The translations under genes and the position numbers were made by a program. A DNA stretch of 64,000 nucleotides, taken from positions 17,725-81,724 of the forward strand of contig CAYWES010000001.1 of the NCBI GenBank assembly GCA_964457625.1, given 5' to 3'. The notes under the pieces were generated by a model. The model saw nothing but the letters and a program-made list of their open reading frames with translations, was not told where the DNA came from and ran no database searches. The stretch is from an uncultured Candidatus Saccharibacteria bacterium. GTDB taxonomy: Bacteria > Patescibacteriota > Minisyncoccia > Phycocordibacterales > UBA1550. How positions within the stretch are numbered: the first letter of the stretch is position 1; each line of letters opens with the position of its first letter. Positions 1 through 49,996 of the stretch are shown piece by piece.

Positions 1-136
1 GTATTATTCTTGTCGCGTTTATTCTTGTTAAATTTATTCTCTATACCTTCCTCAACACCGAATATTACAATTTTGTACAATTTCTTTTTGCTTTCTAAGT
101 TGCGGAAAGGGGAGAGGAGTGTATACTTAAAGATAT

Positions 137-535
137 ATGAAACGATTTATTGCAAGCATAGTTTTTTTAACAGCGCTTATTCTTCCCGGGGCGACGCTTG
201 TGTATGCACAGCCGTCGGGTGGAACTACGAGAGAAGTGGTACTCCAGGATGGAACAAGGAGAACAGTCACCACACTTAAAAACCCCATCCAATACGACAC
301 CTTTCCAAAGTTTGTCTCTGCGGTGATTAAGGCAGTCAATCGTATACTCATGCCGTTTATCGTGCTTGCGTTTATTTGGACGGGATTCCTCTTTGTCCGC
401 GCGCAAGGGAAAGAAGAGGATCTGACGACCGCAAAAAAATCTCTCTATTGGAGCGTTGCAGGCGCGTTCATTCTTCTCGCGGCGGAAGGATTCTCAAATA
501 TTATTGCTACCACAGTGAAGACCATTGCAGGGTAA
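137..535 (+). CDS. small secreted/membrane protein, paralog 1 of 4 (TrbC/VirB2-like pilin topology, tentative)
   Basis: ATG at 137; N-terminal signal-like MKRFIASIVFLTALILPGATLVYAQ; two hydrophobic helices separated by a charged loop (RAQGKEEDLTTAKK); shares architecture with the next three ORFs. Confidence 0.6.
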   Translation: MKRFIASIVFLTALILPGATLVYAQPSGGTTREVVLQDGTRRTVTTLKNPIQYDTFPKFVSAVIKAVNRILMPFIVLAFIWTGFLFVRAQGKEEDLTTAKKSLYWSVAGAFILLAAEGFSNIIATTVKTIAG

Positions 536-544
536 TTTTCAACT

Positions 545-850
545 ATGACATTAAATACACTTGTCCTCTGGGTTTTGCAGATGATTGTTCAGCCTCTCGC
601 GTGGATTATTATTACCCTCGCAGCGGTCTTTTTCATGTGGAATATCTTCAAGATTATCGCAAACAGGGACAGCGCCGAGGCTCTCACGAAGCTTAAAACA
701 CAAACATTCTGGGGAGTGATTGCCCTCTTCGTAATGACCTCCGTATGGGGGCTTGTGGCATGGCTTACCAATACTTTTTTGGGGACTGCGCCGTTTATTC
801 CTCAGCTTGAGACAAATCCACAGAGGATTGATAATGTGCTCATGCGGTAG
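545..850 (+). CDS. small two-TM membrane protein, paralog 2 of 4
   Basis: 101 aa; TM1 ...FFMWNIFKII, charged loop NRDSAEALTKLK, TM2 with MTSVWGLVAWLTNT motif near-identical to paralog 3. Confidence 0.6.
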   Translation: MTLNTLVLWVLQMIVQPLAWIIITLAAVFFMWNIFKIIANRDSAEALTKLKTQTFWGVIALFVMTSVWGLVAWLTNTFLGTAPFIPQLETNPQRIDNVLMR

Positions 851-963
851 GGAATCGAGGGAGACACCTTGCGCTCTGCGGGCGCTTTGCTACAATAGAG
901 TGAAGCTTCATGGGCTTAGAAATGGGTATCGTTAATAGCATTTATTTATATAAGTTAAGAATT

Positions 964-1335
964 ATGAAAAAAATTATTGTAGGATTTGCTCTTTTGGCAA
1001 CACCGGTCGCGGTATTCGCGCAAAATCTTCGCGTAGGAACAGGTCAAGATTTAGGCGCCTTGATAACATTCTTCCAGGCGGTGCTCAGTGCGGCAACAAT
1101 GCTTATCATTGCCGCTGCGGTGGTGTGGTTTTTGTATGGAGTACTTATGTTTGTGGGTGCAAAAGATTCAGAAGCCCGTGATGAAGGGCGCAACAAAATC
1201 ATTGCTGGTATTATCGGTATCGCGGTAATGACCTCCGTATGGGGACTTGTTCGTTGGGTTACTAACACCGCTGGTACGGGAAGCGCGGGAGCTCCTACGG
1301 TAAACCCAGGGCAGCTTCTTCCTGGAGGTTTCTAA
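964..1335 (+). CDS. small two-TM membrane protein, paralog 3 of 4 (signal peptide MKKIIVGFALLATPVAVFAQ)
   Basis: ATG 964 gives a classical signal peptide; the ORF track's alternative start at 910 would add an 18-aa extension. Loop KDSEARDEGRNK; TM2 MTSVWGLVRWVTNT. Confidence 0.6.
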   Translation: MKKIIVGFALLATPVAVFAQNLRVGTGQDLGALITFFQAVLSAATMLIIAAAVVWFLYGVLMFVGAKDSEARDEGRNKIIAGIIGIAVMTSVWGLVRWVTNTAGTGSAGAPTVNPGQLLPGGF

Positions 1336-1363
1336 GTCATAAAATATTATTTCTTAATATACT

Positions 1364-1624
1364 ATGGGGCTTGAACAGGCAGCAGGAGATACCATCGCAG
1401 TCATCAATAGGGAGATTTTGAATCCCCTTATTTTGCTTCTCTTTGGTGCTGCGATAGTGTATTTCTTGTGGGGATTGATGGTCTTTATCAGAAATCAAGA
1501 CAATGAAGAAGCGCAGGGGGATGGGCGCCGACATATGTTTTGGGGTGTAGTGGGAATATTTCTCATGATGGCGGTGGGAGGAATACTCAATGTGCTGACA
1601 AACCTCGCAAGCCAGATCCGATAA
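1364..1624 (+). CDS. small two-TM membrane protein, paralog 4 of 4
   Basis: 86 aa; FLWGLMVFIRNQDNEEAQGDGRRHMFWGVVGIFLMMAV follows the same helix-charged loop-helix pattern. Confidence 0.55.
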   Translation: MGLEQAAGDTIAVINREILNPLILLLFGAAIVYFLWGLMVFIRNQDNEEAQGDGRRHMFWGVVGIFLMMAVGGILNVLTNLASQIR

Positions 1625-2476: not shown

Positions 2477-3642
2477 TCAGTTCTTTTTGTTTTGATTAAC
2501 CAAAATTTCGATTTGGTCTGCCAAAGCATTTTGTCCTTGTTTGATTTGGTCTACGAGGGCAATCTGTCCTTTGGGGATTTCTTTATTATCCCCGAGAACA
2601 TAGACGGCCTTTCCTTGTACACCGGCAACTCGAGCAACTTCCTCTCGGATTGCAAGCTCGGCAACATCGGCGTACTTGTGGAGTTGCTCCATCTTGAGCC
2701 GAGTTGCTTCTGCGGAAGCTTTTCCAACTACTTCAATGGCTTGCGCACGACGCTCTTCATAAGCGAGGTGAGCATCACCTTCCTTTGTTTTCTCGAGGAT
2801 CTTTGCTTCACCATCGCGCTCAGCTCTTGCCTTTGCGGTAAGAGAGTCTTTTACTTCCTTGCTTCCACCAGTGAGTTCAACCCTCACGATGTTGGCATTT
2901 ACGACTTTGACCCCGAGTCTGCCGATGAAACCATCTCCCAATTCATTCCCATTGAACTCTTCTCCATTTTCGTCGGTGATGATAGTTTCAACGGTATCAT
3001 TAGGGTCTTCCTTGTTTATAAGTACAAGATCCTCGAAGTCCTTACCTTTTACGAAAGGATTCATGAGAGCCTTGATCTCCGCTTCCAAGCGGAGAAACCA
3101 GTCTTTGGTTTTGAAGAGGGCAATCCAAGGGAATATAATCCTTACATGAATCACGATGTCAATCGTGACCTCCAGGTTATCCCTTGTTTCAAAGTCGTCG
3201 CAGCGGACAACGTACGCAACTTCCTTTAAGAAAAAGAAGTTTGTAGGTTCCTTCCGTCGGACATACTCCGTTTTTATGCTTTCCCCTTCCTTTGTATCTC
3301 TCATTTCCGCCCAGGTAAAGGAGTCTTCCCTGATTTTGAAGGGGGGAAGCCCAACCCAGTGCACTCCCATGACTTCACGCTGAAAATCAAGATACGCACC
3401 TTGAGCCTCGGCTGACTCGGGAACTACTTGCCATTCTCCATGGATTTGCTTTATTGCGAATTTTGCGGACCCGCAAACAAATCCTTTGAATGCATTTTCC
3501 CGGACAATTACTTGCCCGGTATTTTCTTTCGGAGTAGTGAATAGCCATTCTCTCCTCGCGAGGAGGAGTGGGCCGTATACAAACAATAGTCCTGATAAGA
3601 CCATTGCTATAAGAGTTACAACAATAAGAGTAATAAGCATAA
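2477..3642 (-). CDS. SPFH/band-7 (stomatin/flotillin-like) domain protein
   Basis: ATG at the complement of 3640-3642 with GAGGAGG RBS; N-terminal TM; SPFH-like core and a long Ala/Glu/Lys-rich coiled-coil tail (AKARAERDGEAKILEKTKEG...). Confidence 0.8.
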
Positions 3643-3766
3643 TACACCTCCTCGGTGTTTTGGTTGTTGGATTGATTGCCAAAGATCAGCAATTTCTAAG
3701 GATGATTGTATCAAATTTTATCAAAAAAGTCAAGGTTCCTCGTATGGTACACTCTCAAGTACCCGC

Positions 3767-3851
3767 GAGTATGTGGCGGAATTGGTATACGCGTGCGTCT
3801 CAGAAGCGCATGGAGTAATCCTTGGGGGTTCAAGTCCCCCCATACTCACCA
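3767..3851 (+). tRNA. tRNA-Leu(CAG)
   Basis: Acceptor GAGTATG/CATACTC, anticodon loop CTCAGAA, long variable arm, T-arm GGGGG-TTCAAGT-CCCCC, discriminator A, encoded CCA. Confidence 0.85.
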
Positions 3852-3905
3852 AGGCACGCAAAGCCTGTTATATATTTCGCATTATTGATATAATACGTCT
3901 CATAT

Positions 3906-4619
3906 ATGATTGCACCGGAAAAACAAGGAGGACGAAAAGTTTCCATTGATGAGATTCGCGAGGGATGTATTGTTGTCACGGACAAGGATATGGTGGAGTC
4001 GCGTGTGTGTACTATCAACAACGAGTTTCGTCATGGAATGGAGATTGTAAAGGACATCAAACGCGGAGTGACGTTTTTTGGTTCCGCGCGTACGCCTATT
4101 GATTCACCGCTTTATCAGAAAGCGTATCGTCTCGCCAAGCGCATCAGCGAGGAGCTCGGCTACGCGATTATCACCGGGGGCGGTCCGGGAATCATGGGCG
4201 CGGGAAACCAAGGCGCGTATGAAGCGGGAGGGGAGTCTATCGGCTTTACCATCAAGCTTCCCATGGAGCAGACGACGAATCTCTTTATCACCAAAGAGAC
4301 GCCGTTTTATTATTTCTTTACCCGCAAGGTCGCGCTCTCATTTGCCGCTGATGCGTATGTGGTATTTCCCGGAGGGTACGGCACGCTTGATGAGCTTTCT
4401 GAAATCCTCACGCTCATACAAACAGGGAAGACCGAACGCGTGCCCATCATTCTCGTAGGTGTTGATTTTTGGCAGCCGTTTGTCGACTTTCTCAAGCACA
4501 AGGTGCTTGAAGAAGAGAAAGCCATCGATCCCGAGGACATGGATCTTTTTGTACTCACTGATGATGAAGAAAAAATCATGGAGATTCTCAAAAATACTCC
4601 TCCGCGCAGTAGGGTATAA
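3906..4619 (+). CDS. LOG family protein (cytokinin riboside 5'-monophosphate phosphoribohydrolase-like / TIGR00730)
   Basis: Motifs ITGGGPGIMGAGNQGA and PGGYGTLDEL. Confidence 0.85.
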   Translation: MIAPEKQGGRKVSIDEIREGCIVVTDKDMVESRVCTINNEFRHGMEIVKDIKRGVTFFGSARTPIDSPLYQKAYRLAKRISEELGYAIITGGGPGIMGAGNQGAYEAGGESIGFTIKLPMEQTTNLFITKETPFYYFFTRKVALSFAADAYVVFPGGYGTLDELSEILTLIQTGKTERVPIILVGVDFWQPFVDFLKHKVLEEEKAIDPEDMDLFVLTDDEEKIMEILKNTPPRSRV

Positions 4620-4630
4620 CATAAAGACAT

Positions 4631-4677
4631 AAAAAGAAAACTCCCCAATACTCAACGTACTGAGGAGTTTTCTTTTT
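4631..4677. terminator. rho-independent terminator hairpin
   Basis: GAAAACTCC...GGAGTTTTC 9-bp stem flanked by an A-run and TTTTT. Confidence 0.6.
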
Positions 4678-4680
4678 ATG

Positions 4681-4762
4681 TGCCGAGGAGAGGACTTGAA
4701 CCTCCATGGGTTACCCCGCTTGCTCCTAAGGCAAGTGCGTCTACCAATTTCGCCACCTCGGC
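4681..4762 (-). tRNA. tRNA-Leu(TAG)
   Basis: Reverse complement reads GCCGAGGTGGCGAAATTGGTAGACGCACTTGCCTTAGGAGCAAG...GGTTCAAGTCCTCTCCTCGGCA; anticodon loop CTTAGGA; long variable arm. Confidence 0.85.
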
Positions 4763-4823
4763 AGTATGTATTGCCCTGTTATACCATAAAGGGAAGGGGA
4801 CACAAAACGAGACAACCTTCTCT

Positions 4824-4857
4824 CAAACAAAAAAACACCCCAGTGTGAGCTAGGGTG
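4824..4857 (-). terminator. terminator hairpin overlapping the stop codon of the nucleotidase gene
   Basis: On the minus strand CACCC-UAG-CUCACACU-GGGUG followed by U7. Confidence 0.5.
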
Positions 4858-5434
4858 CTTCAAGTGTTTTTGCTATTCGAGTGATTTTTTCATAAAAATC
4901 ACTCCACGACGCAACACGTGTCGCGATACCCTCTTCTTTGATATGAGAATTGTATTCCCATGAAAAAAGAAAACGATGCGGTACGATGTCCATGAGCGGG
5001 ACGAGTTTGTCCAAGTCGTCATCAATGAACACGTCGAGCCCTTTTGAGGCATCTGCTTTTGAGACCTGACGTCCAACTCCCGTGAAGTTCAGATCAAGAC
5101 CGCGAAGAGCGGTCCACTCTTCCGCAATGGCGAGCATCACCTCGCTTCGCGAGGTGATGACCCTGACCTCGTGTCCTTCTTTGATAAGTCGAGGGAGGAA
5201 ATACAACATCCCGTCGACAGGTTCCATCTGGAGCGCTATATCGCGGTCTCCGTACACGAGTACTTGCACGGCACGGTATTGTTCGAGGGTTAGATATCCT
5301 TCTCCAACCGCAAGCTCTCGTTTGAACCTTTCAGGGGGGATAATGACGCCATATAAGTTCTTTGCCCATAAGCTTTTGAGCTTTAAACAATCGGCAATGA
5401 CACCATCAAAATCAAGACCAATATTGATTTTCAT
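4850..5434 (-). CDS. HAD-superfamily 5'(3')-deoxyribonucleotidase-like (NT5C family)
   Basis: N-terminal MKINIGLDFDGVIAD (DxDGV HAD motif I); GGAGG RBS upstream of the ATG at 5434. Confidence 0.75.
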   Translation of the reverse strand: MKINIGLDFDGVIADCLKLKSLWAKNLYGVIIPPERFKRELAVGEGYLTLEQYRAVQVLVYGDRDIALQMEPVDGMLYFLPRLIKEGHEVRVITSRSEVMLAIAEEWTALRGLDLNFTGVGRQVSKADASKGLDVFIDDDLDKLVPLMDIVPHRFLFSWEYNSHIKEEGIATRVASWSDFYEKITRIAKTLEAP

Positions 5435-5550
5435 AGGATATTCCTCCTAGGGGTGAGTTGAAAGCTATTCAAGGACTTCCTTCCTATGCATAGCATAAAA
5501 GGCTGGAAAGGGGAAATCTTGAAAAAGAGGGGTGGGGGAGAGAAAAGGGG

Positions 5551-5596
5551 CACCAAATCAAAAGCCCGTCATGTATGACGGGCTTTTGATTTGGTG
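5551..5596. repeat. 22-bp perfect palindrome (hairpin) abutting/overlapping the 3' CCA end of tRNA-Lys
   Basis: CACCAAATCAAAAGCCCGTCAT-GT-ATGACGGGCTTTTGATTTGGTG; the right arm includes the tRNA discriminator and CCA. Confidence 0.85.
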
Positions 5597-5667
5597 CCCC
5601 CGGTAGGACTCGAACCTACGACCATCTCGTTAAGAGCGAGCTGCTCTACCAACTGAGCTACGAAGGC
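5592..5667 (-). tRNA. tRNA-Lys(CTT)
   Basis: Reverse complement reads GCCTTCGTAGCTCAGTTGGTAGAGCAGCTCGCTCTTAACGAGATGGTCGTAGGTTCGAGTCCTACCGGGGGCACCA; anticodon loop CTCTTAA. Confidence 0.85.
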
Positions 5668-5768
5668 ATATCTTCATAAAGAAGGTATCACGATATTATA
5701 CATAAAAGAGCCGATTAGGGAATAGTGTCATCGTGAGTACACAATACTCTCCGCCCTGCTTATTCTAG

Positions 5769-5849
5769 TACCTGGAGTGGGACTCGAACCCACAAGCCTT
5801 GCGGCGGGAAATTTTAAGTCTCCTGTGTATACCATTCCACCATCCAGGC
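5769..5849 (-). tRNA. tRNA-Leu(TAA)
   Basis: Reverse complement reads GCCTGGATGGTGGAATGGTATACACAGGAGACTTAAAATTTCC...GTGGGTTCGAGTCCCACTCCAGGTA; anticodon loop CTTAAAA; long variable arm; no encoded CCA. Confidence 0.8.
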
Positions 5850-5904
5850 AAGGGAATACTATGTGACCACTCTAGCAGAAAAAAGGGGGCGGGGGAAGAT
5901 TGAG

Positions 5905-5941
5905 CCCAAAGCGGGTCGGGCTTTGCCCGACCCGCTTTGGG
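5905..5941. repeat. 17-bp perfect palindrome hairpin between tRNA-Leu(TAA) and tRNA-Cys
   Basis: CCCAAAGCGGGTCGGGC-TTT-GCCCGACCCGCTTTGGG, preceded by a G-rich run (GGGGGCGGGGG). Confidence 0.85.
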
Positions 5942-5959
5942 TTTACGGGAGTTTTCTTG

Positions 5960-6031
5960 AGGCGTGGGCGAGAATCGAACTCGCGTATAGAGGTTTTGCA
6001 AACGACTGCCTTACCACTTGGCCACCACGCC
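5960..6031 (-). tRNA. tRNA-Cys(GCA), with two central mismatches in the anticodon stem
   Basis: Reverse complement reads GGCGTGGTGGCCAAGTGGTAAGGCAGTCGTTTGCAAAACCTCTATACGCGAGTTCGATTCTCGCCCACGCC+U discriminator. Acceptor and T-arm are perfect and U73 is typical of tRNA-Cys. Anticodon stem GTCGT/ACCTC gives only 3 of 5 pairs. Confidence 0.55.
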
Positions 6032-28386: not shown

Positions 28387-31300
28387 ATGCGAGAGAAGAA
28401 ATATTTTGCGCGCTATAAAAAGCCGCTTGTGCCTATGCCGAATCTTGTGGAGACCCACTTGAAGTCATATGAGTGGCTCATCGAAGAAGGCTTGAAAGAA
28501 GCTTTCAAAGATTTCTCACCTATTAGAGATTATTCCGAGAAAAAATTTGAGCTTGAATTTACCGGTATCGAACTCTCAAAACCAAAGTATGATGAGTACT
28601 TTGCGAAAGAAAATAAGCTTTCCTACGAAGCCCCTCTCAAGGCGCGCGTGAAGCTTATTAATAAAACACTCAAGAGCGAGAAAGAACAGGAAATCTTCAT
28701 GGCAGATTTTCCTATGATGACATCACATGGTACCTTCATCGTAAATGGTGTTGAGCGTGTGGTCGTCCCTCAGATTTCTCGTTCTTTCGGTGTGTCTTTT
28801 ACGGCCGGTGAAATCAAAGGAAAGCGTTACTTCGGATCAAAAATTATTCCCGGACGTGGTGCGTGGATTGAAGTTGAATCAGACCCTGATGGAGCAATCT
28901 ACGTGCGTATAGATAAAAAGCGAAAGTTTCCCGTGACCGTACTCTTGCGCGCTTTGGGAGTGGCGACCGACGATGCTATTCTCAAACTCTTTGCGCACGA
29001 CGAGGACGCAAAGAAGATTGTTGAACACACCTTGAGCAAGGACTCTGCAAAAACTCCCGAAGAGGCGTTTGTGGAGATTCACAAGAAGCTTCGTGATGGT
29101 GATCTCGCGACGCCCGAAAATGCGCGCAGTTTTGTTGACTCTATTTTTGCAAAAGAGAAATATGATCTCTCTGAAGTTGGTCGTTTTAAGTTCAACAAGC
29201 GTTTTGGCAAATCTCTCGACAAGGCGGCGCTCAAAGAACGAACTATCAATGCAGCTGATATTGCAACGATTGTTACTCATATCGTAAAACAAAATCTCAA
29301 CCCTCATGCGCTCCCTGACGATATCGATCATTTGGGCTCACGACGCATTCGCTCTGTGGGAGAAATGCTTCAGCAGAAAATTCGCGTTGGTCTCACGCAA
29401 ATGAAGCGCAATATTCAGGACCGTATGTCGACAATCGATACTGATGCGACGTTGCCGGTTCAGTTTATTTCTCCTCGCCCTCTCCAGGCACGTCTCAAGG
29501 AATTCTTTGCGACAAACCAGCTTTCGCAGTTTATGACGCAGTACAACGTGCTCTCTGAGATTGAAAGCCTCCGTACCTTCTCTGCACTCGGGCCGGGAGG
29601 TCTCACACGAGAGCGTGCGGGTATCGAAGTGCGCGACGTACACCCGTCACACTATGGACGTCTTTGTCCTATCCATACTCCCGAAGGTCCAAACATCGGT
29701 CTTATCCTCCGTCTCTCATGCTATGCGCGTGTGAATGATTTTGGCATGATTGAAACACCCTATGTAAAGGTAAAGGGAGGAAAGCTTACCAAGGAAATTG
29801 ACTATCTCGACGCCCTCGAAGAAGAGCAGTATTACATTGCCCATATGGCAACTGCGCTTGATGGCGACAAGATTGTTGATGAAAAAGTTTCTGTGCGTCA
29901 CGATGGTACTCCTACACTCATTGATCGTGATCGTGTGGACTATATGGATATTGCCGCAAACCAGGCATTTTCTATTGCGACATCAATGGTTCCATTCCTT
30001 GAACACGACAACGCAAACCGCGCGCTCATGGGTTCCAACATGCAAAAGCAGGCTATTCCTTGTGTAATCGCGGAGGCACCCCTTGTTGCGACGGGCATGG
30101 AAGAGCTCGCTGCGCGTGATACAGGTCGTCTCATAGTGGCTGACGTTGATGGTACCATTACTCATGCGGACGCAAGAAAAATCTCGCTAAAGGACGAGAA
30201 AGGGAAAGTCCATGAGTATAAGCTTGTAAACTATGCGCGTACAAACGGCTTTACCGCATTCCACCAGCGCCCAAGCGTGAACGTGGGAGACAAAGTGAAG
30301 AAGGGAGCTATCCTCGCAGATACCTCGTCGTCAGACAAGGGACAAATCGCGATCGGCCAGAATACTCTCGTGGCGTTTATGTCATGGGGCGGTTCAAACT
30401 ACGAAGACGCTATTATTCTTTCAGAACGTCTCGTAAAGGACAGCAAGTTTACCTCAATCCATATGGACGAGTTTGTGGTAAATGTTCGTGACACCAAGCT
30501 TGGGCCCGAAGTGACTACTCATGATATTCCTAATGTCGGCGAAGCAAAGCTCAAGGATCTCGACGAGGATGGTATCATCCGTATTGGTGCGGAGGTGCAT
30601 CCCGGAGATATTCTTGTAGGAAAGATTACGCCAAAGGGGGAGCAAGAGCTTACTCCTGAAGAGCGCCTTCTCCGTTCAATCTTTGGTGAAAAGGCGCGTG
30701 ATGTAAAAGATACATCGCTTCGTATGGAGCACGGTAAGCGCGGGCGCATTGTGGGAGTAAAGGTATTCTCACGCGAAAAAGGTGACTCGCTCGATAGCGG
30801 TATTATCAAGCGCATTCACATTGAGGTTGCCCAGGTGCGTAATATCTCTGTGGGTGACAAGCTCGCGGGCCGTCATGGTAACAAAGGTGTGATTTCAGTC
30901 ATCCTTCCTGAGGAAGATATGCCATACATGGCAGATGGTCGTCCTGTGGACGTTATTTTGACTCCCCTTGGTGTGCCATCTCGTATGAACCTGGGTCAGA
31001 TTTTGGAGCTCCACTTGGGGCTTGCCGCGGATACTTTGAACTATCAAGCGATTGTTCCTCCATTTATGGGTGCGACACCTGACGAAATCAAAGCTGAGCT
31101 TGCGAAGGCAGGGTATCGTGAAGACGGAAAAATGAAACTCTTCGACGGTCGTACCGGAGAGGCGTTTGATCAGGATATTGCCGTAGGGTATATGTATATC
31201 TTGAAATTGAACCACATGGTTGAAGATAAGATTCACATGCGTTCAATCGGACCATACTCACTCATTACTCAGCAACCTCTTGGCGGTAAAGCACAAGGTG

Positions 31301-31545
31301 GTGGTCAGCGTTTTGGAGAAATGGAAGTGTGGGCTCTCGAAGGCTATGGTGCGGCGCACGTGCTCCGTGAGATGCTTACCATCAAGTCAGACGATATTAG
31401 TGGTCGTTCAGGGGCATTTGATGCGATTGTGAAGGGGGAGGAGATTACGCAAAGTAATATCCCCGAGTCCTTCAATGTACTCCTCAATTATCTCCGTGGA
31501 CTCTCTCTTGATATCCAGCTCCTTCGTAAGGACGAGATTAAATAA
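28387..31545 (+). CDS. rpoB: DNA-directed RNA polymerase beta subunit (compact, 1052 aa)
   Basis: Conserved blocks e.g. LGPGGLTRERAG, NMQRQAVP-like region, GDKLAGRHGNKGV. Confidence 0.95.
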   Translation: MREKKYFARYKKPLVPMPNLVETHLKSYEWLIEEGLKEAFKDFSPIRDYSEKKFELEFTGIELSKPKYDEYFAKENKLSYEAPLKARVKLINKTLKSEKEQEIFMADFPMMTSHGTFIVNGVERVVVPQISRSFGVSFTAGEIKGKRYFGSKIIPGRGAWIEVESDPDGAIYVRIDKKRKFPVTVLLRALGVATDDAILKLFAHDEDAKKIVEHTLSKDSAKTPEEAFVEIHKKLRDGDLATPENARSFVDSIFAKEKYDLSEVGRFKFNKRFGKSLDKAALKERTINAADIATIVTHIVKQNLNPHALPDDIDHLGSRRIRSVGEMLQQKIRVGLTQMKRNIQDRMSTIDTDATLPVQFISPRPLQARLKEFFATNQLSQFMTQYNVLSEIESLRTFSALGPGGLTRERAGIEVRDVHPSHYGRLCPIHTPEGPNIGLILRLSCYARVNDFGMIETPYVKVKGGKLTKEIDYLDALEEEQYYIAHMATALDGDKIVDEKVSVRHDGTPTLIDRDRVDYMDIAANQAFSIATSMVPFLEHDNANRALMGSNMQKQAIPCVIAEAPLVATGMEELAARDTGRLIVADVDGTITHADARKISLKDEKGKVHEYKLVNYARTNGFTAFHQRPSVNVGDKVKKGAILADTSSSDKGQIAIGQNTLVAFMSWGGSNYEDAIILSERLVKDSKFTSIHMDEFVVNVRDTKLGPEVTTHDIPNVGEAKLKDLDEDGIIRIGAEVHPGDILVGKITPKGEQELTPEERLLRSIFGEKARDVKDTSLRMEHGKRGRIVGVKVFSREKGDSLDSGIIKRIHIEVAQVRNISVGDKLAGRHGNKGVISVILPEEDMPYMADGRPVDVILTPLGVPSRMNLGQILELHLGLAADTLNYQAIVPPFMGATPDEIKAELAKAGYREDGKMKLFDGRTGEAFDQDIAVGYMYILKLNHMVEDKIHMRSIGPYSLITQQPLGGKAQGGGQRFGEMEVWALEGYGAAHVLREMLTIKSDDISGRSGAFDAIVKGEEITQSNIPESFNVLLNYLRGLSLDIQLLRKDEIK

Positions 31546-31564
31546 CCTTTAGCTGTAACCAATT

Positions 31565-34500
31565 ATGAAAACATTACGCGAACAACAGAATTTCGATTCA
31601 ATTCTTTTGAAGCTTGCATCCCCGGAGCGCATTAAAGAATGGTCTTACGGCGAGGTTACCAAGCCTGAGACAATCAACTACCGCACTCAGCGCAGTGAGC
31701 GCGGAGGTCTCTTTGACGAACGTGTCTTTGGTCCGGAAAAAGACTTCGAGTGTTATTGTGGAAAGTATAAGCGCATTCGTTACAAGGGTATTATTTGTGA
31801 GAAATGTGGTGTTGAGGTGACGCGCTCAATTGTACGTCGCGAGCGCATGGGTCACATTGAGCTTGCGAGCCCGGTAGCTCATATCTGGTTTCTCCGCAAT
31901 ATTTCTTCTCGTATGGGGCTCTTGCTCAACCTTCCCCTCGTTGACCTTGAAAAGGTAATTTACTTCGCGGGCTACATCATTACGAGTGTAAATGAGGCAG
32001 AGCGTGAAAATCTCATGCACGAGCTTGATACGGAGTATAAGACTAAGTCAAAACAGCTTACTGATGACACGGCTAAAGATGCGTTGAAAGAGCTTCTCCT
32101 CACAAGCAAGCGTGAAATTGAAAGTCTTGTGGAAGGAAAAGTTCTCGATGAGGTGTCGTACCACAAGCTTTCTCTCAAGTATGGTACTGCGTTTGAAGCA
32201 GGTATTGGTGCTGAAGCAATTTACAACATCTTTAAGAAATTGGATCTTCCAAAGTTTAAGGAGAAACTTGAGGCTGATTTTGAAAAGGCGGGTGCCGTAG
32301 AGCGTGCGAAGCTTCATAAGCGTCTCGCGCTTGTGAAGTCGATGATTCAGTCGGGCGTTCGTCCTGAATGGATGTTTGTCACCGTCATTCCGGTTATCCC
32401 TCCCGCACTTCGCCCCATGGTCGCCCTTGAAGGAGGTCGCCATGCGACATCTGACTTGAACGATCTCTATCGTCGCGTAATCAACCGCAATAATCGCTTG
32501 AAGAAACTCAAAGAGATTGGAGCACCTGACGTGATTCTTCGCAACGAGAAGCGCATCCTTCAGGAGGCGGTGGATTCGCTCGTCGACAATTCAATTCGTC
32601 GCGTACAATCTGTTTCTATGAATCAGGCACAAAAGCGAAGTCTGAAGTCTCTCGCAGATACGCTCAAAGGAAAGCAAGGTCTCTTCCGACAAAATCTTCT
32701 CGGTAAGCGCGTAGACTATTCAGGTCGTTCGGTGATTATCGTGGGACCAAGACTTCGGTTGAACGAGTGCGGTCTTCCAAAGCACATGGCGCTTGAGCTT
32801 TTCCGCCCATTCATTATTTCAAAGCTCATTGAGCGCGAACTCGCATACAATATTCGTGGTGCAAACAAGCTTGTCGATGACAGCGTTCCCGAGGTGTGGG
32901 CAATTCTTGAAGAGGTAATCCGTGGTAAGTACGTGCTCTTGAACCGCGCGCCGACACTTCACCGTCTCGGTATCCAGGCATTTCACCCAATTCTTGTTGA
33001 AGGAAATGCTATTCAGGTTCATCCGCTCGTATGTACCGCCTTTAACGCAGACTTCGACGGAGACCAAATGGCTGTTCACGTACCACTTTCGACCCCTGCT
33101 CAGTATGAGGCGGGAGAGTTTATGGCTGCCAATAAAAACCTCTTGGGTCCCGGAAACGGCGATCCTATCGTAAACCCTAAGCTTGATATTCCTCTTGGGT
33201 GTTACTCTATGACAAAGATTATCGATGGTGCGAAAGGGGAAGGAAAGATTTTCCCAAATCCAAATAGCGCCATTACCGCATATGACTTTGATGCCGTAAG
33301 TTACCGCGCAAAGATCAAGGTGCTCGGAACGGATACACCAAAGTACACACAGTTTGAAGGGCAGGTCTTTGAGACTACAGTGGGTCGCCTTCTCTTCAAC
33401 TCCGTACTTCCTTCTGATTTCCCTTATGTTAACAAGGAGCTTGGGAAGAAGGAGCTTGAGGTACTCATTGATGAGATTATCAATCGGTATGGTATTGATG
33501 CTACTCCTCCAATCCTCGACAAGATAAAAGATTTCGGATTTAAGTATGTTACCAAGGCCGGTATCACGTGGGGGCTTGATGAAATTAAGACACCCGAGGA
33601 AAAAGCTGACGTTATTGCGCACGCTCGCAAAGAAGCTGATGAGGTTCGCGAAGAATACAATGAAGGACTTTTGTCGGAAGAAGAACGCTATCGTCGCACT
33701 ATTGAAGTGTGGCAAGGCGCTCGTGCTGAAATAGAAAAGTTTATGCCAAGCACGCTCCAAAAAGATGGTTCCGTGGAGGACATGTTGAAGTCAGGAGCTC
33801 GTGGTTCGTATGCTCAGATTCTTATGATGGGTGGTATGACCGGTCTCATTGTGAACACTGCGGGGCGCGTCATCGACTTCCCAATTATTCCCTCAAGTAA
33901 AGAAGGTCTTTCTCCTATTGAGTACTTTATTACGACACACGGTTCACGTAAGGGTCTTGCCGACACGGCGCTCAATACCGCAAAGGCAGGATACCTCACA
34001 CGTCGTATTATTGATGTTGCTCAAGATGCCATCATTACTGAAGAAGATTGTGGCGAGAAGGAGGGCAAGGTTATTCGCAAAGAAAACCTTGTCGGCTTCG
34101 ACATTCCTCTTTCAAAGAACCTTCGTGGTCGTACCCTCGTCCAGGATCTTGTCTTGGAGGATGGAAGTGTTCTCTTTAAGAAGGGACACCTTGTGACAAA
34201 GGTTGATGCGCGTGAAGCTGAATCAAAGGGCATCACCGAAGCAGTTGTGCGCTCACCTCTTACGTGCAAGACACTTCATGGTGTTTGTCGCAAGTGCTAC
34301 GGTCTCGATATTGGGCGCAACGAACTCGTCAGAACTGGTGAAGCGGTGGGTATTGTTGCCGCACAGGCGATCGGTGAGCCGGGAACTCAGCTTACCATGC
34401 GTACCTTCCACGCCGGAGGTATTGCATCAGTTGGTGGTGACATTACCACAGGTCTTCCACGTGTTGAGGAAATCTTTGAACGTCGTATGCCAAAGAGTCT

Positions 34501-35200
34501 TGCGATTGTATCTCATACTAATGGCGTTGTCACAGAAGTGACACGTAATGAAAAAGAGCTCCGCATCGTAGTACTCCCCGAAGCAGGCGAGGGTAAAAAG
34601 AAAGGGGAGGCTATGGAGTATGAGACAACGCGTGCTCGTACGCCGCTTGTGAAGGTGGGGGAGGCAGTACTTAAAGGACAGTTCCTTTCAGACGGCTCCG
34701 CAGATATCGCAGAAGTATTCCAGTACGCAGGCAAAGATGCTGCAGAAAACTACATTATCAATGAAGTACTGAAGATTTACGAACTCCAGGGCGCGTCGAT
34801 CTCTCGCAAGCACATTGAGGTAATTATTCGCCAGATGTTTTCTCGTCGCAAAATTAAAGAAGCAGGAGATACCAAATACAACATTGGAGAGATTGTTGAA
34901 TGTGGTGAGCTTGCTCTTGAAAACGAGCGCGTTGAAAAACTTGGTGGAACAAAAGCTAAGGGCGAAGCACTCGTTCTCGGTATCTCCGAAGTTGCCCTTA
35001 CTACAAAAAGTTGGCTCTCTGCTGCATCCTTTGAGAACACCACGCGTATTCTCATCAACACTGCAATCCGCGGAGAAGTTGACACTCTCCGAGGGCTCAA
35101 GGAAAACGTTATCATCGGTAACTTGATTCCTACAGGTACAGGGTTTGGTGTAAAGAAGGAGGATGGACTTCCTGGCAACGCAGAAGAAGAAAACGCGTAG
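31565..35200 (+). CDS. rpoC: DNA-directed RNA polymerase beta' subunit
   Basis: Zn finger [20 protein letters not shown]; NADFDGD catalytic motif; 1211 aa. Confidence 0.95.
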
Positions 35201-38364: not shown

Positions 38365-39084
38365 TTAGCGTAGTACTTTTTCTATTTGTGCTTTTACGGT
38401 GAGGTATGATTGCGCTCCTTCAATGATGTCGACAATTTTTCCATTCACGACAATCAAAGAGTGTGGGGTACCGCTTACTCCCGCATTATTGCCACTCATC
38501 ATATCCATCTCAACGAGGGTGCTCATCTCACCGCTCTCTAGACAGGTATTGAAGGCATCCTCGTCAATACCGAGCCCGGAAGCAAAGACAGGAAGGTCTA
38601 GGAGATTAAGACCATCATTTGAAGTGGTTACACGAAAGATAGTGTCAACGTACTGCCAAAATTGTGTATTTCCACCAAGGCGCGCAACACATTCTGTTGC
38701 CTCTGCTTCTTTGAAAGCTTTTACATGGAAGGGGAGAGGGAAGTGGCGATACACCCAAGCAACTTCTCCTTCTGCACCAAACTGAGCCATGATTTGGTTC
38801 ATTGTAGTGTGAAATACTTTACAATACGGACACTCAAGGTCTGAGTATTCTACGATAAATACCTTCGCCTGAGGGTTTCCTCGAATGTGATCCGCTTCTG
38901 TGATAGGCTCAAGCGTTATGTTTGAAGGTATCCCTGGGGCAGAGTTCCGTTCAGTATTTCCAAAAGAGGAGGGAGTAGTACCTCCTCCAAAGATTATTGC
39001 TGCGGCAATGATGAGCCCCGCAACAATAATTGCTCCCGGAATGGCGAATGTATTGCTGGCAGGGGATGTCTTTGTGTCTTCCAT
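38365..39084 (-). CDS. DsbA-family thioredoxin-fold protein, membrane-anchored
   Basis: CPYC active site; N-terminal TM. Start uncertain (39084 MEDTK.., or 39132). Confidence 0.75.
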   Translation of the reverse strand: MEDTKTSPASNTFAIPGAIIVAGLIIAAAIIFGGGTTPSSFGNTERNSAPGIPSNITLEPITEADHIRGNPQAKVFIVEYSDLECPYCKVFHTTMNQIMAQFGAEGEVAWVYRHFPLPFHVKAFKEAEATECVARLGGNTQFWQYVDTIFRVTTSNDGLNLLDLPVFASGLGIDEDAFNTCLESGEMSTLVEMDMMSGNNAGVSGTPHSLIVVNGKIVDIIEGAQSYLTVKAQIEKVLR

Positions 39085-39168
39085 GTGTTTGTATAAACTA
39101 TATGATGAATAATACCAGTAAGTATATATCATCTGGCACAAAATGTCCTAGTATGCTTATAATAGTAT

Positions 39169-45925: not shown

Positions 45926-48829
45926 ATGAAAGCATACGACCACAAGGATCTTGAGGGAAAATGGCAAAAAATCTGGGAGGAGACGGGAGTGTATCGCACG
46001 GATGATTCTTCTGAAAAACCAAAACAATTTATTCTCGATATGTTCCCGTATCCATCAGGAGAGGGTCTTCATGTGGGGCATCCTAAGGGATATATTGCGA
46101 CTGACATCTATGCACGCATGAAGCGTATGAGCGGGTTTAATGTACTCCATCCCATGGGGTGGGATGCGTTTGGTCTCCCCGCGGAACAGTTTGCGATTAA
46201 GCACAAAGTACATCCTCGTGTGGCGGTAGAAAAAAATGTTGCTCGCTACAAAGAGCAACTCTCTGTTATTGGTCTTGATTATGATTGGGCACGCGAGATA
46301 AATACGACAGATCCTGCCTTTTATAAGTGGACGCAGTGGATTTTTTTGAAACTGTTGGAAAAAGGTCTTGCCTATGAGTCATATGAACCGATTAACTGGT
46401 GCCCCACGTGTCAAACGGGTCTTGCTAACGAAGATCTTGATGGAGGGAAGTGTGAGCGATGTGATACTCCCGTCGAGAAAAAGCCCATGCGACAATGGGT
46501 ACTCAAAATTACGGAGTACGCAGACCGCATGCTCAAAGACCTTGATCTCCTTAATTGGCCGGACTCTATCAAGGAAGCCCAACGAAATTGGATTGGGAGG
46601 AGTGAAGGAGCGGAAATAGATTTCAATTTGGTATTCAAATTGCATCCAAAACATAACGATTGGCGCGACCCAAAAGACGAAAAACCTGCGCATATTACGG
46701 TATTCACCACGCGTCCCGATACGCTTTTTGGTGCGACATATCTGGTGCTTGCCCCTGAACATCCTTGGGTAGAGGCTTTGTGGAATACCGAACACGACGA
46801 CAGTGTGGGTAACAAAAGTGAAATAGAGGCATATGTGAAGCATGCCAGGGAAAAGACCGATATAGAACGTGCTGACGCGACGAAAGAAAAAACGGGTGTA
46901 AACGTTGAAGGAGTTGTTGCTCTTAATCCCGTGACGAAAGAAGAGATTCCAATATTTGTTGCGGATTATGTGCTTGGAGGGTACGGTACGGGTGCGGTGA
47001 TGGCTGTCCCGGCACATGACGAGCGAGACTTTCTTTTTGCTCAGAAATTTAGCCTGCCTTTCAGGGAGGTTGTCGTGCCTCATAGGGTTGATTATAAAAA
47101 TCCCCCCGTATCAGAAAAAGAAGTTGTTACACGAAAGAATATTCATGGTCTCGTGCGTAATCCAAAAACAGGCAAGATACTTTGTCTCAAGTGGAAAGAA
47201 CATCCTTGGACAACCCTTGTGGTGGGAGGAGTAGAGGATGGTGAGGATATTATTGAAGCGGCGCGGAGAGAAATTCTAGAAGAGACGGGATATGCACACC
47301 TCAGTGAGGGTCGCATCTTGGGAGGAGAAGTACGTGCCGACTACTTTGCAGCACACAAAGATCAAAATAGAATCGCGTACACTAGTCTTGTTGCATTTGA
47401 TCTTCTTGATGAAGAACAGCAAGACATCTCAGCGGACGAACAGAGTAAACATGAAGTCGTTTGGCTTGATGAGAAGGACGTCACAGTGGAATTGATGACC
47501 CACGCAGAAATGGACATCTGGCTTGAAAGAATGAATGGCGCGACGGGGGCATACACTCATTCAGGTGTTCTTGTGCATTCCGCACAATTTAATGGCAAAA
47601 GTTCTGAAGAGGCAAAAAAAGAGATTACAGAGTTCGCAGGTGGTCGTTGGGTGACAAAGTATCGTCTCAAGGAGTGGGTGTTTTCACGTCAGCGCTACTG
47701 GGGTGAGCCTATCCCGGTTATTCATTGTCCGAAGGATGGTGTTGTTCCCGTTCCCGAGAAGGAACTTCCCGTGCTCCTACCTGATGTGACTTCGTACGAA
47801 CCCACAGGAACGGGGGAGTCACCTCTTGCGGCGATTTCAGATTGGGTCAACACGACATGTCCGCAATGTGGTGGTCCGGGCACGCGCGAGACCAATACGA
47901 TGCCTCAGTGGGCGGGATCATCGTGGTATTACCTTCGTTTCATTGACCCAGAAAATAATGAGGCACTCATTGATCCGAAAAAAGAACATATATGGGATCC
48001 AGTTGACCTTTATGTGGGAGGCGATCATGCGGTGCGCCATCTTATCTACGCGCGTTTTTGGCATAAGTTTTTGTTTGACATAGATGTAGTCCACACTCTT
48101 GAGCCGTTTATGAGACTTGAGTTTCTCGGTTTTATTCTTGCTGAAGATGGTCGTAAAATGAGCAAGCGATGGGGAAATGTCATTAATCCCGATGATGTGG
48201 TAAAAACCTATGGTGCTGACACGCTCCGTCTCTATGAAATGTTCATGGGACCCTTTGAGCAAACTATCGCCTGGAATACCGAGAGTATCATTGGACCACG
48301 AAGGTTCCTTGAGCGTGTATGGCGTTTACGAGAGAATGTTTCATCTTCGGTAAAAGATACCGAAACTCTCGAGACGATTCTTCATAAAACAATCAAAAAA
48401 GTAACGGATGATATTGAAGGGTTTGCCTTTAATACCGCGATTTCTTCGCTCATGGTGCTTTCGAATGAAATGGAGCGTGCCAAAGAATTTTCTCCCCAAG
48501 CCTACGAGACATTCCTGAAACTCCTTGCCCCCTTCGCTCCTCATATTACCGAAGAACTTTGGCATGAATTGGGGCACGAGGACTCAATCCACCTTTCTTC
48601 ATGGCCTACCTACGATCCTCAAAAATGCATCGCTACAGAGGTAACAATTGCCATTCAGATAAATGGGAAGGTCCGCGACACTCTTGTTGTGGCGGCAGAT
48701 ATATCCGAAGACGAAGTTCTCCGTATTGCCCTTGAGCGCCCTCTTGTGTCCAAATGGATGGAAGGGAAGAAGCCCGCAAAAACGATCTTTGTTCCCGGGA
48801 AACTTCTCAGTATTGTCTTAGAAAAATAA
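45926..48829 (+). CDS. leuS: leucyl-tRNA synthetase carrying an inserted Nudix-hydrolase-like domain
   Basis: HIGH (HVGHPKGY), Zn motif CPTCQT..CERC, editing-domain block TTRPDTLFGATYLVLAPEHP...GTGAVMAVPAHDERDF, KMSKS (KMSKRWGN). An inserted block of about 150 aa contains the canonical Nudix box GGVEDGEDIIEAARREILEETGY. Confidence 0.9.
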   Translation: MKAYDHKDLEGKWQKIWEETGVYRTDDSSEKPKQFILDMFPYPSGEGLHVGHPKGYIATDIYARMKRMSGFNVLHPMGWDAFGLPAEQFAIKHKVHPRVAVEKNVARYKEQLSVIGLDYDWAREINTTDPAFYKWTQWIFLKLLEKGLAYESYEPINWCPTCQTGLANEDLDGGKCERCDTPVEKKPMRQWVLKITEYADRMLKDLDLLNWPDSIKEAQRNWIGRSEGAEIDFNLVFKLHPKHNDWRDPKDEKPAHITVFTTRPDTLFGATYLVLAPEHPWVEALWNTEHDDSVGNKSEIEAYVKHAREKTDIERADATKEKTGVNVEGVVALNPVTKEEIPIFVADYVLGGYGTGAVMAVPAHDERDFLFAQKFSLPFREVVVPHRVDYKNPPVSEKEVVTRKNIHGLVRNPKTGKILCLKWKEHPWTTLVVGGVEDGEDIIEAARREILEETGYAHLSEGRILGGEVRADYFAAHKDQNRIAYTSLVAFDLLDEEQQDISADEQSKHEVVWLDEKDVTVELMTHAEMDIWLERMNGATGAYTHSGVLVHSAQFNGKSSEEAKKEITEFAGGRWVTKYRLKEWVFSRQRYWGEPIPVIHCPKDGVVPVPEKELPVLLPDVTSYEPTGTGESPLAAISDWVNTTCPQCGGPGTRETNTMPQWAGSSWYYLRFIDPENNEALIDPKKEHIWDPVDLYVGGDHAVRHLIYARFWHKFLFDIDVVHTLEPFMRLEFLGFILAEDGRKMSKRWGNVINPDDVVKTYGADTLRLYEMFMGPFEQTIAWNTESIIGPRRFLERVWRLRENVSSSVKDTETLETILHKTIKKVTDDIEGFAFNTAISSLMVLSNEMERAKEFSPQAYETFLKLLAPFAPHITEELWHELGHEDSIHLSSWPTYDPQKCIATEVTIAIQINGKVRDTLVVAADISEDEVLRIALERPLVSKWMEGKKPAKTIFVPGKLLSIVLEK

Positions 48830-48964: not shown

Positions 48965-49996
48965 ATGTCAGCACTTACGTTTAAACCAAAGCAGTCTGTC
49001 AAACGCTTGCTTTCGGTATTGTCTCCCCGCGCGCTTGACGTCATTACCAAGCGATATGGCTTGAAGGATGATACCAACCGTATGACCCTTGAAGGAATCG
49101 GTGCCACCTATGATATTACACGCGAGCGCGTGCGCCAGATAGAAAATTTTGCATTGGCCACCATTAAAAAGTCAGATGTCTTTAAAAAAGAGTCTGCCGT
49201 ATTCAAAGAGCTTCACGATGTCATCGTTTCCATGGGGGGTGTCGTTTGTGAAGAGGATTTTCTCATGCACCTATCCCGTGATGAGAGTACTCAGAACCAT
49301 CTTTATTTTCTTCTTGTTCTTGGAGAGGAGTTTAAACGCGAAAAAGGAGACGAACATTTTAAACATCGTTGGATCGTCGATGACAAAACATCAATGCGTG
49401 TACATGATGCGCTCCGCAAACTTTTCGAATCTCTTTCCCACGAAGATCTCGTTCCCGAAGGAGAGATGGTTGAGTTGTTTATCAACCACTTGAAGGAAGT
49501 TGCCGATGGGTACAAGAATGAGGAAATCGTGAAGCGTTGGTTGTCCCTTTCAAAGACAATTGGGAAAAATCCACTTGGTGAATGGGGCATGTCTCGCTCA
49601 CACAATGTAAACGCGCGCGGTATGAGGGACTATGCATATCTCGTGATTAAAAAACACGGTTCCCCGATGCACTTTACAGAGGTTACCAAAGCAATTACAC
49701 AGACCTTCAACAAGAAGGCTCACGTTGCCACCTGTCACAACGAACTCATCAAGGATAGCCGTTTTGTGCTCGTGGGGCGAGGTCTCTACGCACTCTCCTC
49801 ATGGGGGTATGAACGAGGAGTAGTTAAGGACGTGATTGCAAAGATTCTCAAAGAAGAAGGCCCTCTCACCAAAAAAGAAATCATTGACCGCGTCCTCAAA
49901 GAACGATACGTCAAAGAAAATACCGTGTTTGTAAATCTTCAAGACACAAAACTCTTTAAGAAATCAAAAGACAACAAATACTCACTTGCCTCATAA
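48965..49996 (+). CDS. two-HTH protein: N-terminal sigma-70 region-4-like HTH plus C-terminal HARE-HTH-like domain
   Basis: N-terminus LSPRALDVITKRYGL..TLEGIGATYDITRERVRQIENFAL (sigma r4). C-terminal part MHFTEVTKAI...DSRFVLVGRGLYALSSWGY resembles the HARE-HTH (RNA pol delta N-terminal-like) signature. Confidence 0.6.
   Translation: MSALTFKPKQSVKRLLSVLSPRALDVITKRYGLKDDTNRMTLEGIGATYDITRERVRQIENFALATIKKSDVFKKESAVFKELHDVIVSMGGVVCEEDFLMHLSRDESTQNHLYFLLVLGEEFKREKGDEHFKHRWIVDDKTSMRVHDALRKLFESLSHEDLVPEGEMVELFINHLKEVADGYKNEEIVKRWLSLSKTIGKNPLGEWGMSRSHNVNARGMRDYAYLVIKKHGSPMHFTEVTKAITQTFNKKAHVATCHNELIKDSRFVLVGRGLYALSSWGYERGVVKDVIAKILKEEGPLTKKEIIDRVLKERYVKENTVFVNLQDTKLFKKSKDNKYSLAS

Follow-up and report, generated by a model that had tools for sequence, protein, structure and literature searches.

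We analysed a 64-kb window of contig CAYWES010000001.1, from an uncultured Patescibacterium, whose left edge carries a tandem array of small genes resembling the pilins of type IV secretion systems (T4SSs). The original prediction had described four small same-strand open reading frames (ORFs) of 132, 101, 123 and 86 amino acids as paralogous pilin-type genes, and all four are present on the forward strand: P1 at 137-535 (132 amino acids), P2 at 545-850 (101 amino acids, with a long C-terminal tail), P3 at 964-1335 (123 amino acids) and P4 at 1364-1624 (86 amino acids, the shortest). Each is supported by the ORF list and by a match to the Pfam family PF18895. The start of P3 was set at 964 because the ortholog starts correspond to the MKK at this position; the mechanical ORF from the ATG at 910 would encode 141 amino acids. 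The count of four holds for whole genes inside the window, but the array itself has five, since a further gene, P0, is cut at the left edge and contributes only its 3' end (1-98, forward strand). Contig L001, which comes from a separate assembly, has these genes as well, with window base 1 falling at L001 position 9865, and matched the window base for base over the stretch compared (bases 1-300). The full P0 gene spans L001:9564-9962 and encodes 132 amino acids; it is the fifth and most divergent paralog. A hidden Markov model (HMM) of the pilin family, searched against all stop-to-stop ORFs of at least 40 amino acids in the 64-kb window, matched P1-P4 with E-values of 1e-25 to 5e-32 and found no further pilin gene in the rest of the window.

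The paralogs are only distantly similar to one another. By BLASTP, pairwise identity was 35-38% among P2, P3 and P4, and P1 was 21% identical to P2 and 31% to P4; its match to P3 was non-significant (E 1.5). At the nucleotide level, P2 (731-774) and P3 (1225-1268) share 44 nt at 82% identity, 20 nt of them an exact match, although their proteins are only ~38% identical overall. This stretch could be a micro gene-conversion tract, but gene conversion is not demonstrated by it, since unrelated P2-P3 pairs across genomes reach exact matches of 19 nt.

All four whole genes exceeded the gathering score of PF18895 (T4SS_pilin, 26.6 bits) over nearly the entire 71-position model, P1 with 35.7 bits (E 9.5e-9), P2 with 27.4, P3 with 28.4 and P4 with 36.3 bits (E 5.9e-9). 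The assignment to TrbC/VirB2-like pilins that had been proposed was borne out to the extent that P1-P4 passed this model, but none of them matched PF04956 (TrbC). On the profile evidence, membership of P1-P4 in PF18895 is established, and membership in TrbC/VirB2 proper is not. P0 fell below threshold for both families (23.4 bits, E 7.2e-5, against the PF04956 threshold of 27.9 bits; 22.8 bits for PF18895), and its orthologs are mostly annotated as PF18895, several of them also as PF04956. P1-P4 additionally aligned over ~65-70 of the 80 positions of NCBIfam NF045849, the Mbov_0395 family of pilin-like conjugal transfer proteins, which is named for a protein of a Mycoplasma integrative conjugative element, with scores (18-22 bits, E 7.5e-5 to 1.8e-3) far below its cut-off of 40 bits. 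The family is large: of the 1.84 billion cluster representatives in the library searched, 38,552 matched its profile at E <= 1e-3. Foldseek of the P3 model against the PDB returned nothing at E <= 0.001. Profile matches in the PDB to PsaF and G-protein-coupled receptors were set aside as chance, and weak matches to DctQ (P1, 15.3 bits) and to NADH-dehydrogenase chain 6 were treated as compositional. We base the likeness to conjugative pilins on the PF18895 family itself, on the bridge that P0 forms to TrbC and on the literature; from PF18895 membership we infer that the products could form a T4SS-assembled filament.

Hydropathy gave each of P1-P4 two hydrophobic helices with a charged loop between them, the short-loop hairpin expected of VirB2-type pilins, and AlphaFold2 models agreed, placing the hairpin at residues 30-65 and 69-102 in P3 (mean predicted local distance difference test score, pLDDT, 79; signal-peptide helix at 3-21) and at 42-78 and 82-118 in P0. 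The loops read RAQGKEEDLTTAKK in P1, NRDSAEALTKLK in P2, KDSEARDEGRNK in P3 and RNQDNEEAQGDGRR in P4; all four had been quoted correctly in the original prediction, but out of gene order. Its sequence motifs fared unevenly. MTSVWGLV.W.TNT is indeed common to P2 and P3, but the V-W-G-L-V-x-W-x-T-N ending ascribed to all second helices occurs in these two only, P4 having VGGILNVLTN and P1 AEGFSNIIAT, and the F-x-W/Y-G motif is exact in P3 and P4 but approximate in P1 and P2.

Two types of N-terminus occur in the array. By inspection of hydropathy and sequence, the signal peptides of P1 (VYA/QP) and P3 (VFA/QN) look cleavable, and P0, P1 and P3 all have a signal-peptide-like N-terminus with an A-x-A site. 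P2 and P4 have no signal peptide, and neither do their orthologs; those of P2 begin MDF... immediately ahead of the first transmembrane (TM) helix. P0 joins its signal peptide to an LVPC...C motif (disulfide loop) and two TM helices, and the Cys pair, with a variable insert, is invariant across 30 orthologs. The window also encodes a membrane-anchored DsbA/thioredoxin-like protein (38365-39141, reverse strand), which is consistent with disulfide formation in P0. In P1 the invariant feature, across 38 orthologs, is N49-P50, which ends an N-terminal extension formed by a G/S/T-rich linker of very variable length. P3 is 48-59% identical to seven orthologs, with a best-conserved core of AAAVVWFLYG ... 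GIAVMxSVWGLV and with D68, R72 and R76 of the charged loop invariant in its group. The P4 ortholog group is also conserved (INPLILLLFALAxVYFLYG...).

The pilin genes are the distal part of a longer operon, which runs from a class-I S-adenosylmethionine (SAM) methyltransferase (179 amino acids) through a membrane-anchored SBP_bac_1-like solute-binding protein (SBP; 437 amino acids, SBP_bac_1/SBP_bac_8) and P0-P4 to a terminator hairpin. The first two genes lie upstream of the window. The methyltransferase, SBP and P0 genes are 3-4 nt apart, gene gaps in the operon measure 4-113 nt, and stops and starts overlap in relatives. The hairpin (1661-1694; L001 11525-11558) is an inverted repeat, 94% complementary, situated between P4 and a convergent reverse-strand gene; it is terminator-like in both directions, with a stem of 15-17 bp and T-rich tails on both strands, and it probably forms the operon's 3' end. 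The small or overlapping gaps, together with this terminator after P4, point to a single transcription unit.

We then compared this arrangement across species, scanning one genome per species with the P3-type alignment. This gave 52 related loci, every one from a Patescibacteria metagenome-assembled genome (MAG) labelled Nomura-, Yonath-, Taylor- or Wolfebacteria, Paceibacterota or Minisyncoccia. Three of the genomes were found in Table S1 of PMC12102498, and all three are assigned there to the GTDB class Paceibacteria. The suggestion that the host is an ultra-small bacterium agrees with this picture of a Patescibacterium whose related loci all come from Paceibacteria-type MAGs. When P0-P4 were compared with all ORFs of the 52 loci, the order was the same essentially everywhere: the array opens with a P0-type and then a P1-type gene, continues with one to four P2/P3-type genes and closes with a P3-type gene followed by one of P4 type. 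More metagenome contigs, beyond the 52 loci, have the same arrangement. The middle P2/P3-type genes number from 1 to 4 or more per species, some of them fused into two-domain proteins. Each paralog best-matched its positional counterpart in other species (in L003, for example, with 89, 95, 60, 99 and 89 bits for P0 to P4), so the paralogs predate the split between these lineages. Judged from these sequence comparisons, they are old, specialised subunits and not recent antigenic variants. Where GyrA was ~80% identical between species, the pilins were ~31-61% and the SBP ~49% identical; the pilins thus diverge about as fast as another envelope protein and are not hypervariable relative to it.

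The methyltransferase and SBP genes stand directly upstream of the array in 50 of the 52 loci, with gyrA further upstream in 44 and infB downstream in 24. Even at L061, where rpsB-tsf replaces gyrA upstream, the methyltransferase, SBP and five pilin genes are still contiguous, with overlapping junctions. The same locus has a large serine recombinase gene (L061:15139-16788) between the pilin array and rbfA-infB.

Proteins at the P0 position elsewhere consist of a pilin module fused to FN3, PKD, DUF5018, Cys-rich or peptidase M15 domains (L006:7280-9133, P0175, P0165, P0159 and P0192). They look like pilin-anchored adhesin- or enzyme-like proteins, which fits an exposed, adhesin-like role for P0. 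Other homologs are single chains with 2-8 tandem PF18895 hairpins (P0203, P0212, P0237, P0265), one of them 820 amino acids long with eight. The TM segments of P2, P3 and P4 were more alike within than between genomes, and the loops were not; for the second TM helix of P2 and P3 the values were 0.628 within and 0.559 between genomes (permutation p 2e-4, in a test that ignores phylogeny). Together, the multi-hairpin fusions and the co-variation suggest that the paralogs lie next to one another.

We consider it the most likely account, at a probability of 0.55, that the five genes encode subunits of a heteromeric pilus-like or conduit structure serving a T4SS encoded elsewhere in the genome. Each subunit would have its N- and C-termini outside and its charged loop inside, a topology that P0, P1 and P3 would reach by way of their signal peptides and P2 and P4 by inserting without one. 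The five would divide the labour within one structure. P2/P3-type proteins would be the likely bulk subunits, because their copy number varies and they are sometimes fused. P0 and P1 would be the likely exposed minor or tip subunits, given the disulfide loop of P0, the FN3, PKD and DUF5018 domains of its counterparts, and the long variable linker of P1. P4 would be a conserved terminal or base subunit. Assembly would fall to the monoderm-type T4SS (VirB4/TrsD/VirB3/VirB6) that is encoded elsewhere in Paceibacteria, typically near dnaA, and the structure would serve epibiotic contact with the host cell. Literature tables provide some support for the association with a T4SS. Array-bearing genomes L015 and L036 have VirB4 (Table S1, PMC12102498), and in the available part of Table S3 of the same paper PF18895 genes of other Patescibacteria classes flank VirB4, TrsD and VirB3.

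Several observations weigh against this assignment, most of them concerning the missing machinery. We know of no pilus seen for any Patescibacterial T4SS. Among the ORFs from -10 to +62 kb, with the exception of the two largest (28387-35200), no VirB4-, VirB6-, VirB3-, VirD4- or PilB/PilC-like gene was found; within this region the array is neither within about 20 genes of virB4 nor linked to VirB4 or mating-pair-formation genes in the manner of the VirB2 class. Nor was a T4SS gene found within 10 kb to either side of any of the 52 related arrays. Of the three array-bearing genomes in Table S1 of PMC12102498, one, the draft MAG L007, has no VirB4 entry, and two Nomurabacteria genomes have, in the available part of Table S3, a virB4 locus with its own single PF18895 gene. 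Since that locus has its own pilin, the array described here is not obviously needed by the virB4 machine. The proteins themselves raise further doubts: P2 and P4 have no leader peptide of the kind usual in VirB2-type pilins, P1-P4 did not match PF04956 at E <= 1, and P0-, P1- and P3-type profiles retrieved no VirB2 or TraA chain from the PDB sequences. Finally, the disregard of phylogeny in the co-variation test tempers the argument that the paralogs are neighbours in one structure.

The chief rival is an envelope complex that is independent of a T4SS and coupled to the SBP. The five hairpins, with ten TM helices in all, would then make a membrane pore or short conduit that works with the co-transcribed SBP to capture or import a host-derived compound, with the methyltransferase acting on a component or on the cargo. 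This could explain why the methyltransferase-SBP-pilin unit, whose gene junctions are tiny or overlapping, holds together in 50 of the 52 loci and stays intact in L061, why no T4SS gene lies near any array, and why the virB4 locus of the two Nomurabacteria genomes (in the part of Table S3 available) has a pilin of its own. Chains with up to eight hairpins also resemble polytopic membrane proteins more than pilus monomers, and P1 has its sub-threshold, probably compositional match (15.3 bits) to DctQ, the small subunit of tripartite ATP-independent periplasmic (TRAP) transporters. We nevertheless regard such a complex as unlikely. The operon contains no ATPase, permease or other energising component, and SBP_bac_1 proteins normally dock on ATP-binding cassette (ABC) permeases. 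Co-transcription is weak evidence of shared function where tight packing is common, as it is in the streamlined Patescibacteria (candidate phyla radiation), and homologous Saccharibacteria arrays lie inside a T4SS cluster and are essential together with it (PMC10633639, PMC12857230). More speculative still, and in our estimate rather improbable, is that the methyltransferase-SBP-five-pilin operon of Paceibacteria encodes an envelope apparatus that is complete in itself and has not been described before, in which a heteromeric VirB2-like filament or pore, physically coupled to the SBP, draws metabolites from the host cell surface. A T4SS would then not be used, or would be used for assembly only. 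Were this true, VirB2-type proteins, currently known from secretion and conjugation pili, would be part of a nutrient-acquisition device.

The divergence of the paralogs could alternatively reflect antigenic or host-range variation, with interchangeable major pilins kept divergent to evade recognition or to bind different hosts. Low pairwise identity (21-38%), a middle P2/P3-type gene number that differs between species from 1 to 4 or more, and exposed N-terminal parts of P0 and P1 that vary greatly in length and sequence would all be in keeping with this idea, which has been suggested for Patescibacteria arrays (PMC12102498) and proposed for the trwL copies of Bartonella Trw. Arrays of the Bartonella Trw type would consist of recent, lineage-specific and interchangeable duplicates whose variation is concentrated in exposed parts. 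Here, only the P2/P3-type copy number varies; positional orthologs of every paralog occur in more than 50 species, so that the divergence predates speciation, and the paralogs differ in conserved qualitative ways (whether they have a signal peptide, a Cys pair or the NP motif). The divergence of the pilins is no faster than that of the SBP next to them, two independent assemblies of the population are identical where compared, and no switching machinery or silent cassettes were found. We therefore think variation of this kind improbable. The antigenic diversification put forward in the original prediction is weakened by the ancient, 1:1 ordered orthologs, the conserved loop residues and the SBP-like divergence rate, and its other suggestion, functional diversification, fits five specialised subunits better. 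A last alternative is that these are unrelated membrane proteins that resemble pilins in composition only, the Pfam name itself being a prediction. The absence of a specific pilin match from fold and PDB-sequence searches, PF18895 scores only 1-10 bits above threshold, and the unrelated labels of a few homologs (e.g. 'succinate dehydrogenase cytochrome b subunit') could be taken in that sense. We judge this very improbable, since the matches of four adjacent genes to one curated model are independent, P0-type members form a bridge to PF04956, and PF18895 genes of other Patescibacteria classes flank T4SS genes in the available part of Table S3.

Tandem arrays of VirB2-like pilins in Patescibacteria are already known from the literature (Wang 2023, PMC10633639; Quinonero-Coronel 2025, PMC12102498). 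In S. epibionticum a series of pilins lies inside an essential T4SS cluster (PMC10633639), described in a 2025 review as six sequence-divergent VirB2-like pilins whose array is essential; according to this review they are the only pilins in a monoderm T4SS, and an uptake conduit has been speculated (PMC12857230). A wider survey counted 1,948 assemblies with VirB2-like pilins, which in 1,135 of them lay near virB4, and described 441 arrays, 2-11 genes in size, in which identity averages 25% and reaches at most 54%; antigenic or host-range versatility was suggested for them (PMC12102498). The array described here resembles those of S. epibionticum ML1 (SEML1_0006-0019) and TM7x ('Sec-secreted array') in PF18895 membership, phylum and monoderm host, and also in its tandem same-strand small genes of low identity (21-38%); with five such genes it exceeds the minimum for a Patescibacteria pilin array, which is two PF18895 or PF04956 genes in tandem or one gene apart. 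It differs in its surroundings. The published arrays are described as lying in or near a virB4 cluster; in the part of Table S3 of PMC12102498 available to us all PF18895 rows are marked 'near virB4', and Figure S9 speaks of arrays 'near virB4'. Here, by contrast, no T4SS gene lies closer than 10 kb to the array, which is joined to methyltransferase and SBP genes in an operon. It also falls into five ordered ortholog groups across a class, unlike the arrays as published. A detached, SBP-linked Paceibacteria operon appears to be absent from the parts of PMC12102498 that were available.

Compared with the TrbC/VirB2/TraA pilins (Agrobacterium VirB2, RP4 TrbC, F TraA), the products are alike in small size, two helices and charged loop, and P0, P1 and P3 have a putative leader peptide, which P2 and P4 lack. 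Those systems belong to diderm hosts, whereas the host here has no outer membrane, and neither a linked VirB5, VirB6 or VirB4 gene nor a maturation gene of the TraF or TraX type was seen at the array. The Trw system of Bartonella likewise has several divergent tandem VirB2-type genes, with multiple trwL/VirB2 and trwJ/VirB5 copies, and DNA transfer is thought to have been lost (PMC12857230). Its copies are sequence-variable and have been put forward as the source of antigenically variable pili that adhere to specific hosts, whereas the copies here are ancient, ordered and qualitatively different. Archaeal Ced/Ted pilins (PDB 8dfu, 8dft) are only 8-12% identical, and we treat them as a resemblance and not as membership because hundreds of unrelated helical hairpins score equally well or better.

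A large part of the bacterial diversity that has not been cultured belongs to the Patescibacteria, whose members live attached to host cells. In the single species tested, their unusual T4SS with its pilin array was essential for epibiotic growth. The present analysis adds that the pilin set of Paceibacteria is a fixed five-type operon, away from virB4 and tied to SBP-like and methyltransferase genes. Such a fixed set implies that five different subunits are probably needed together. It yields testable hypotheses on heteromeric assembly, a possible tip role of P0 and P1, and a possible partnership with the SBP, and the operon is a clean genomic marker for the lineage.

We also looked at regulatory sites and at the remaining genes. 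Promoter-like boxes do occur between the genes, as had been reported, but this region is AT-rich and contains many of them, with 13 promoter-like hexamer sites against 5.6 +/- 2.5 expected, so that any single site carries little weight. TCAACA-18-TACAAT (52-81; L001 9916-9945, forward strand) lies at the end of P0, upstream of P1, and TTGAGA-17-GATAAT (807-835; L001 10671-10699, forward strand) lies upstream of P3, both by consensus match only; another stands ahead of the methyltransferase gene. The array is flanked upstream by gyrA and the methyltransferase and SBP genes, and downstream by SPFH-like genes, tRNAs and infB. The 10 kb upstream encode uracil-DNA glycosylase (UDG), ApbE, GyrA, the methyltransferase and the SBP. 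Immediately beyond the array are two convergent membrane-protein genes (1709-2428 and 2477-3682, both reverse strand) without a Pfam match; the 401-amino-acid product is probably a divergent SPFH protein, as its positional counterparts in L006, L020 and L056 are SPFH/Band_7 proteins. A cluster of tRNA genes, three for Leu and one each for Lys and Cys, follows at 3767-6031, among LOG-family and 5'-nucleotidase genes. The window is otherwise mostly housekeeping in content, encoding IF-2, ClpB, DnaG, sigma-70, leucyl- and alanyl-tRNA synthetases (LeuRS, AlaRS), a release factor (RF), S2, EF-Ts, ZnuA, tRNAs and others. The leucyl-tRNA synthetase ORF (45926-48829, forward strand; 967 amino acids) has a NUDIX domain at residues 405-529, between the editing domain and the remainder of the enzyme, which looks like an unusual insertion. 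An uncommon architecture was also seen at 48965-49996 (forward strand), where a sigma-70 region 4 helix-turn-helix is combined with a HARE-HTH domain and a DUF3320-like segment.

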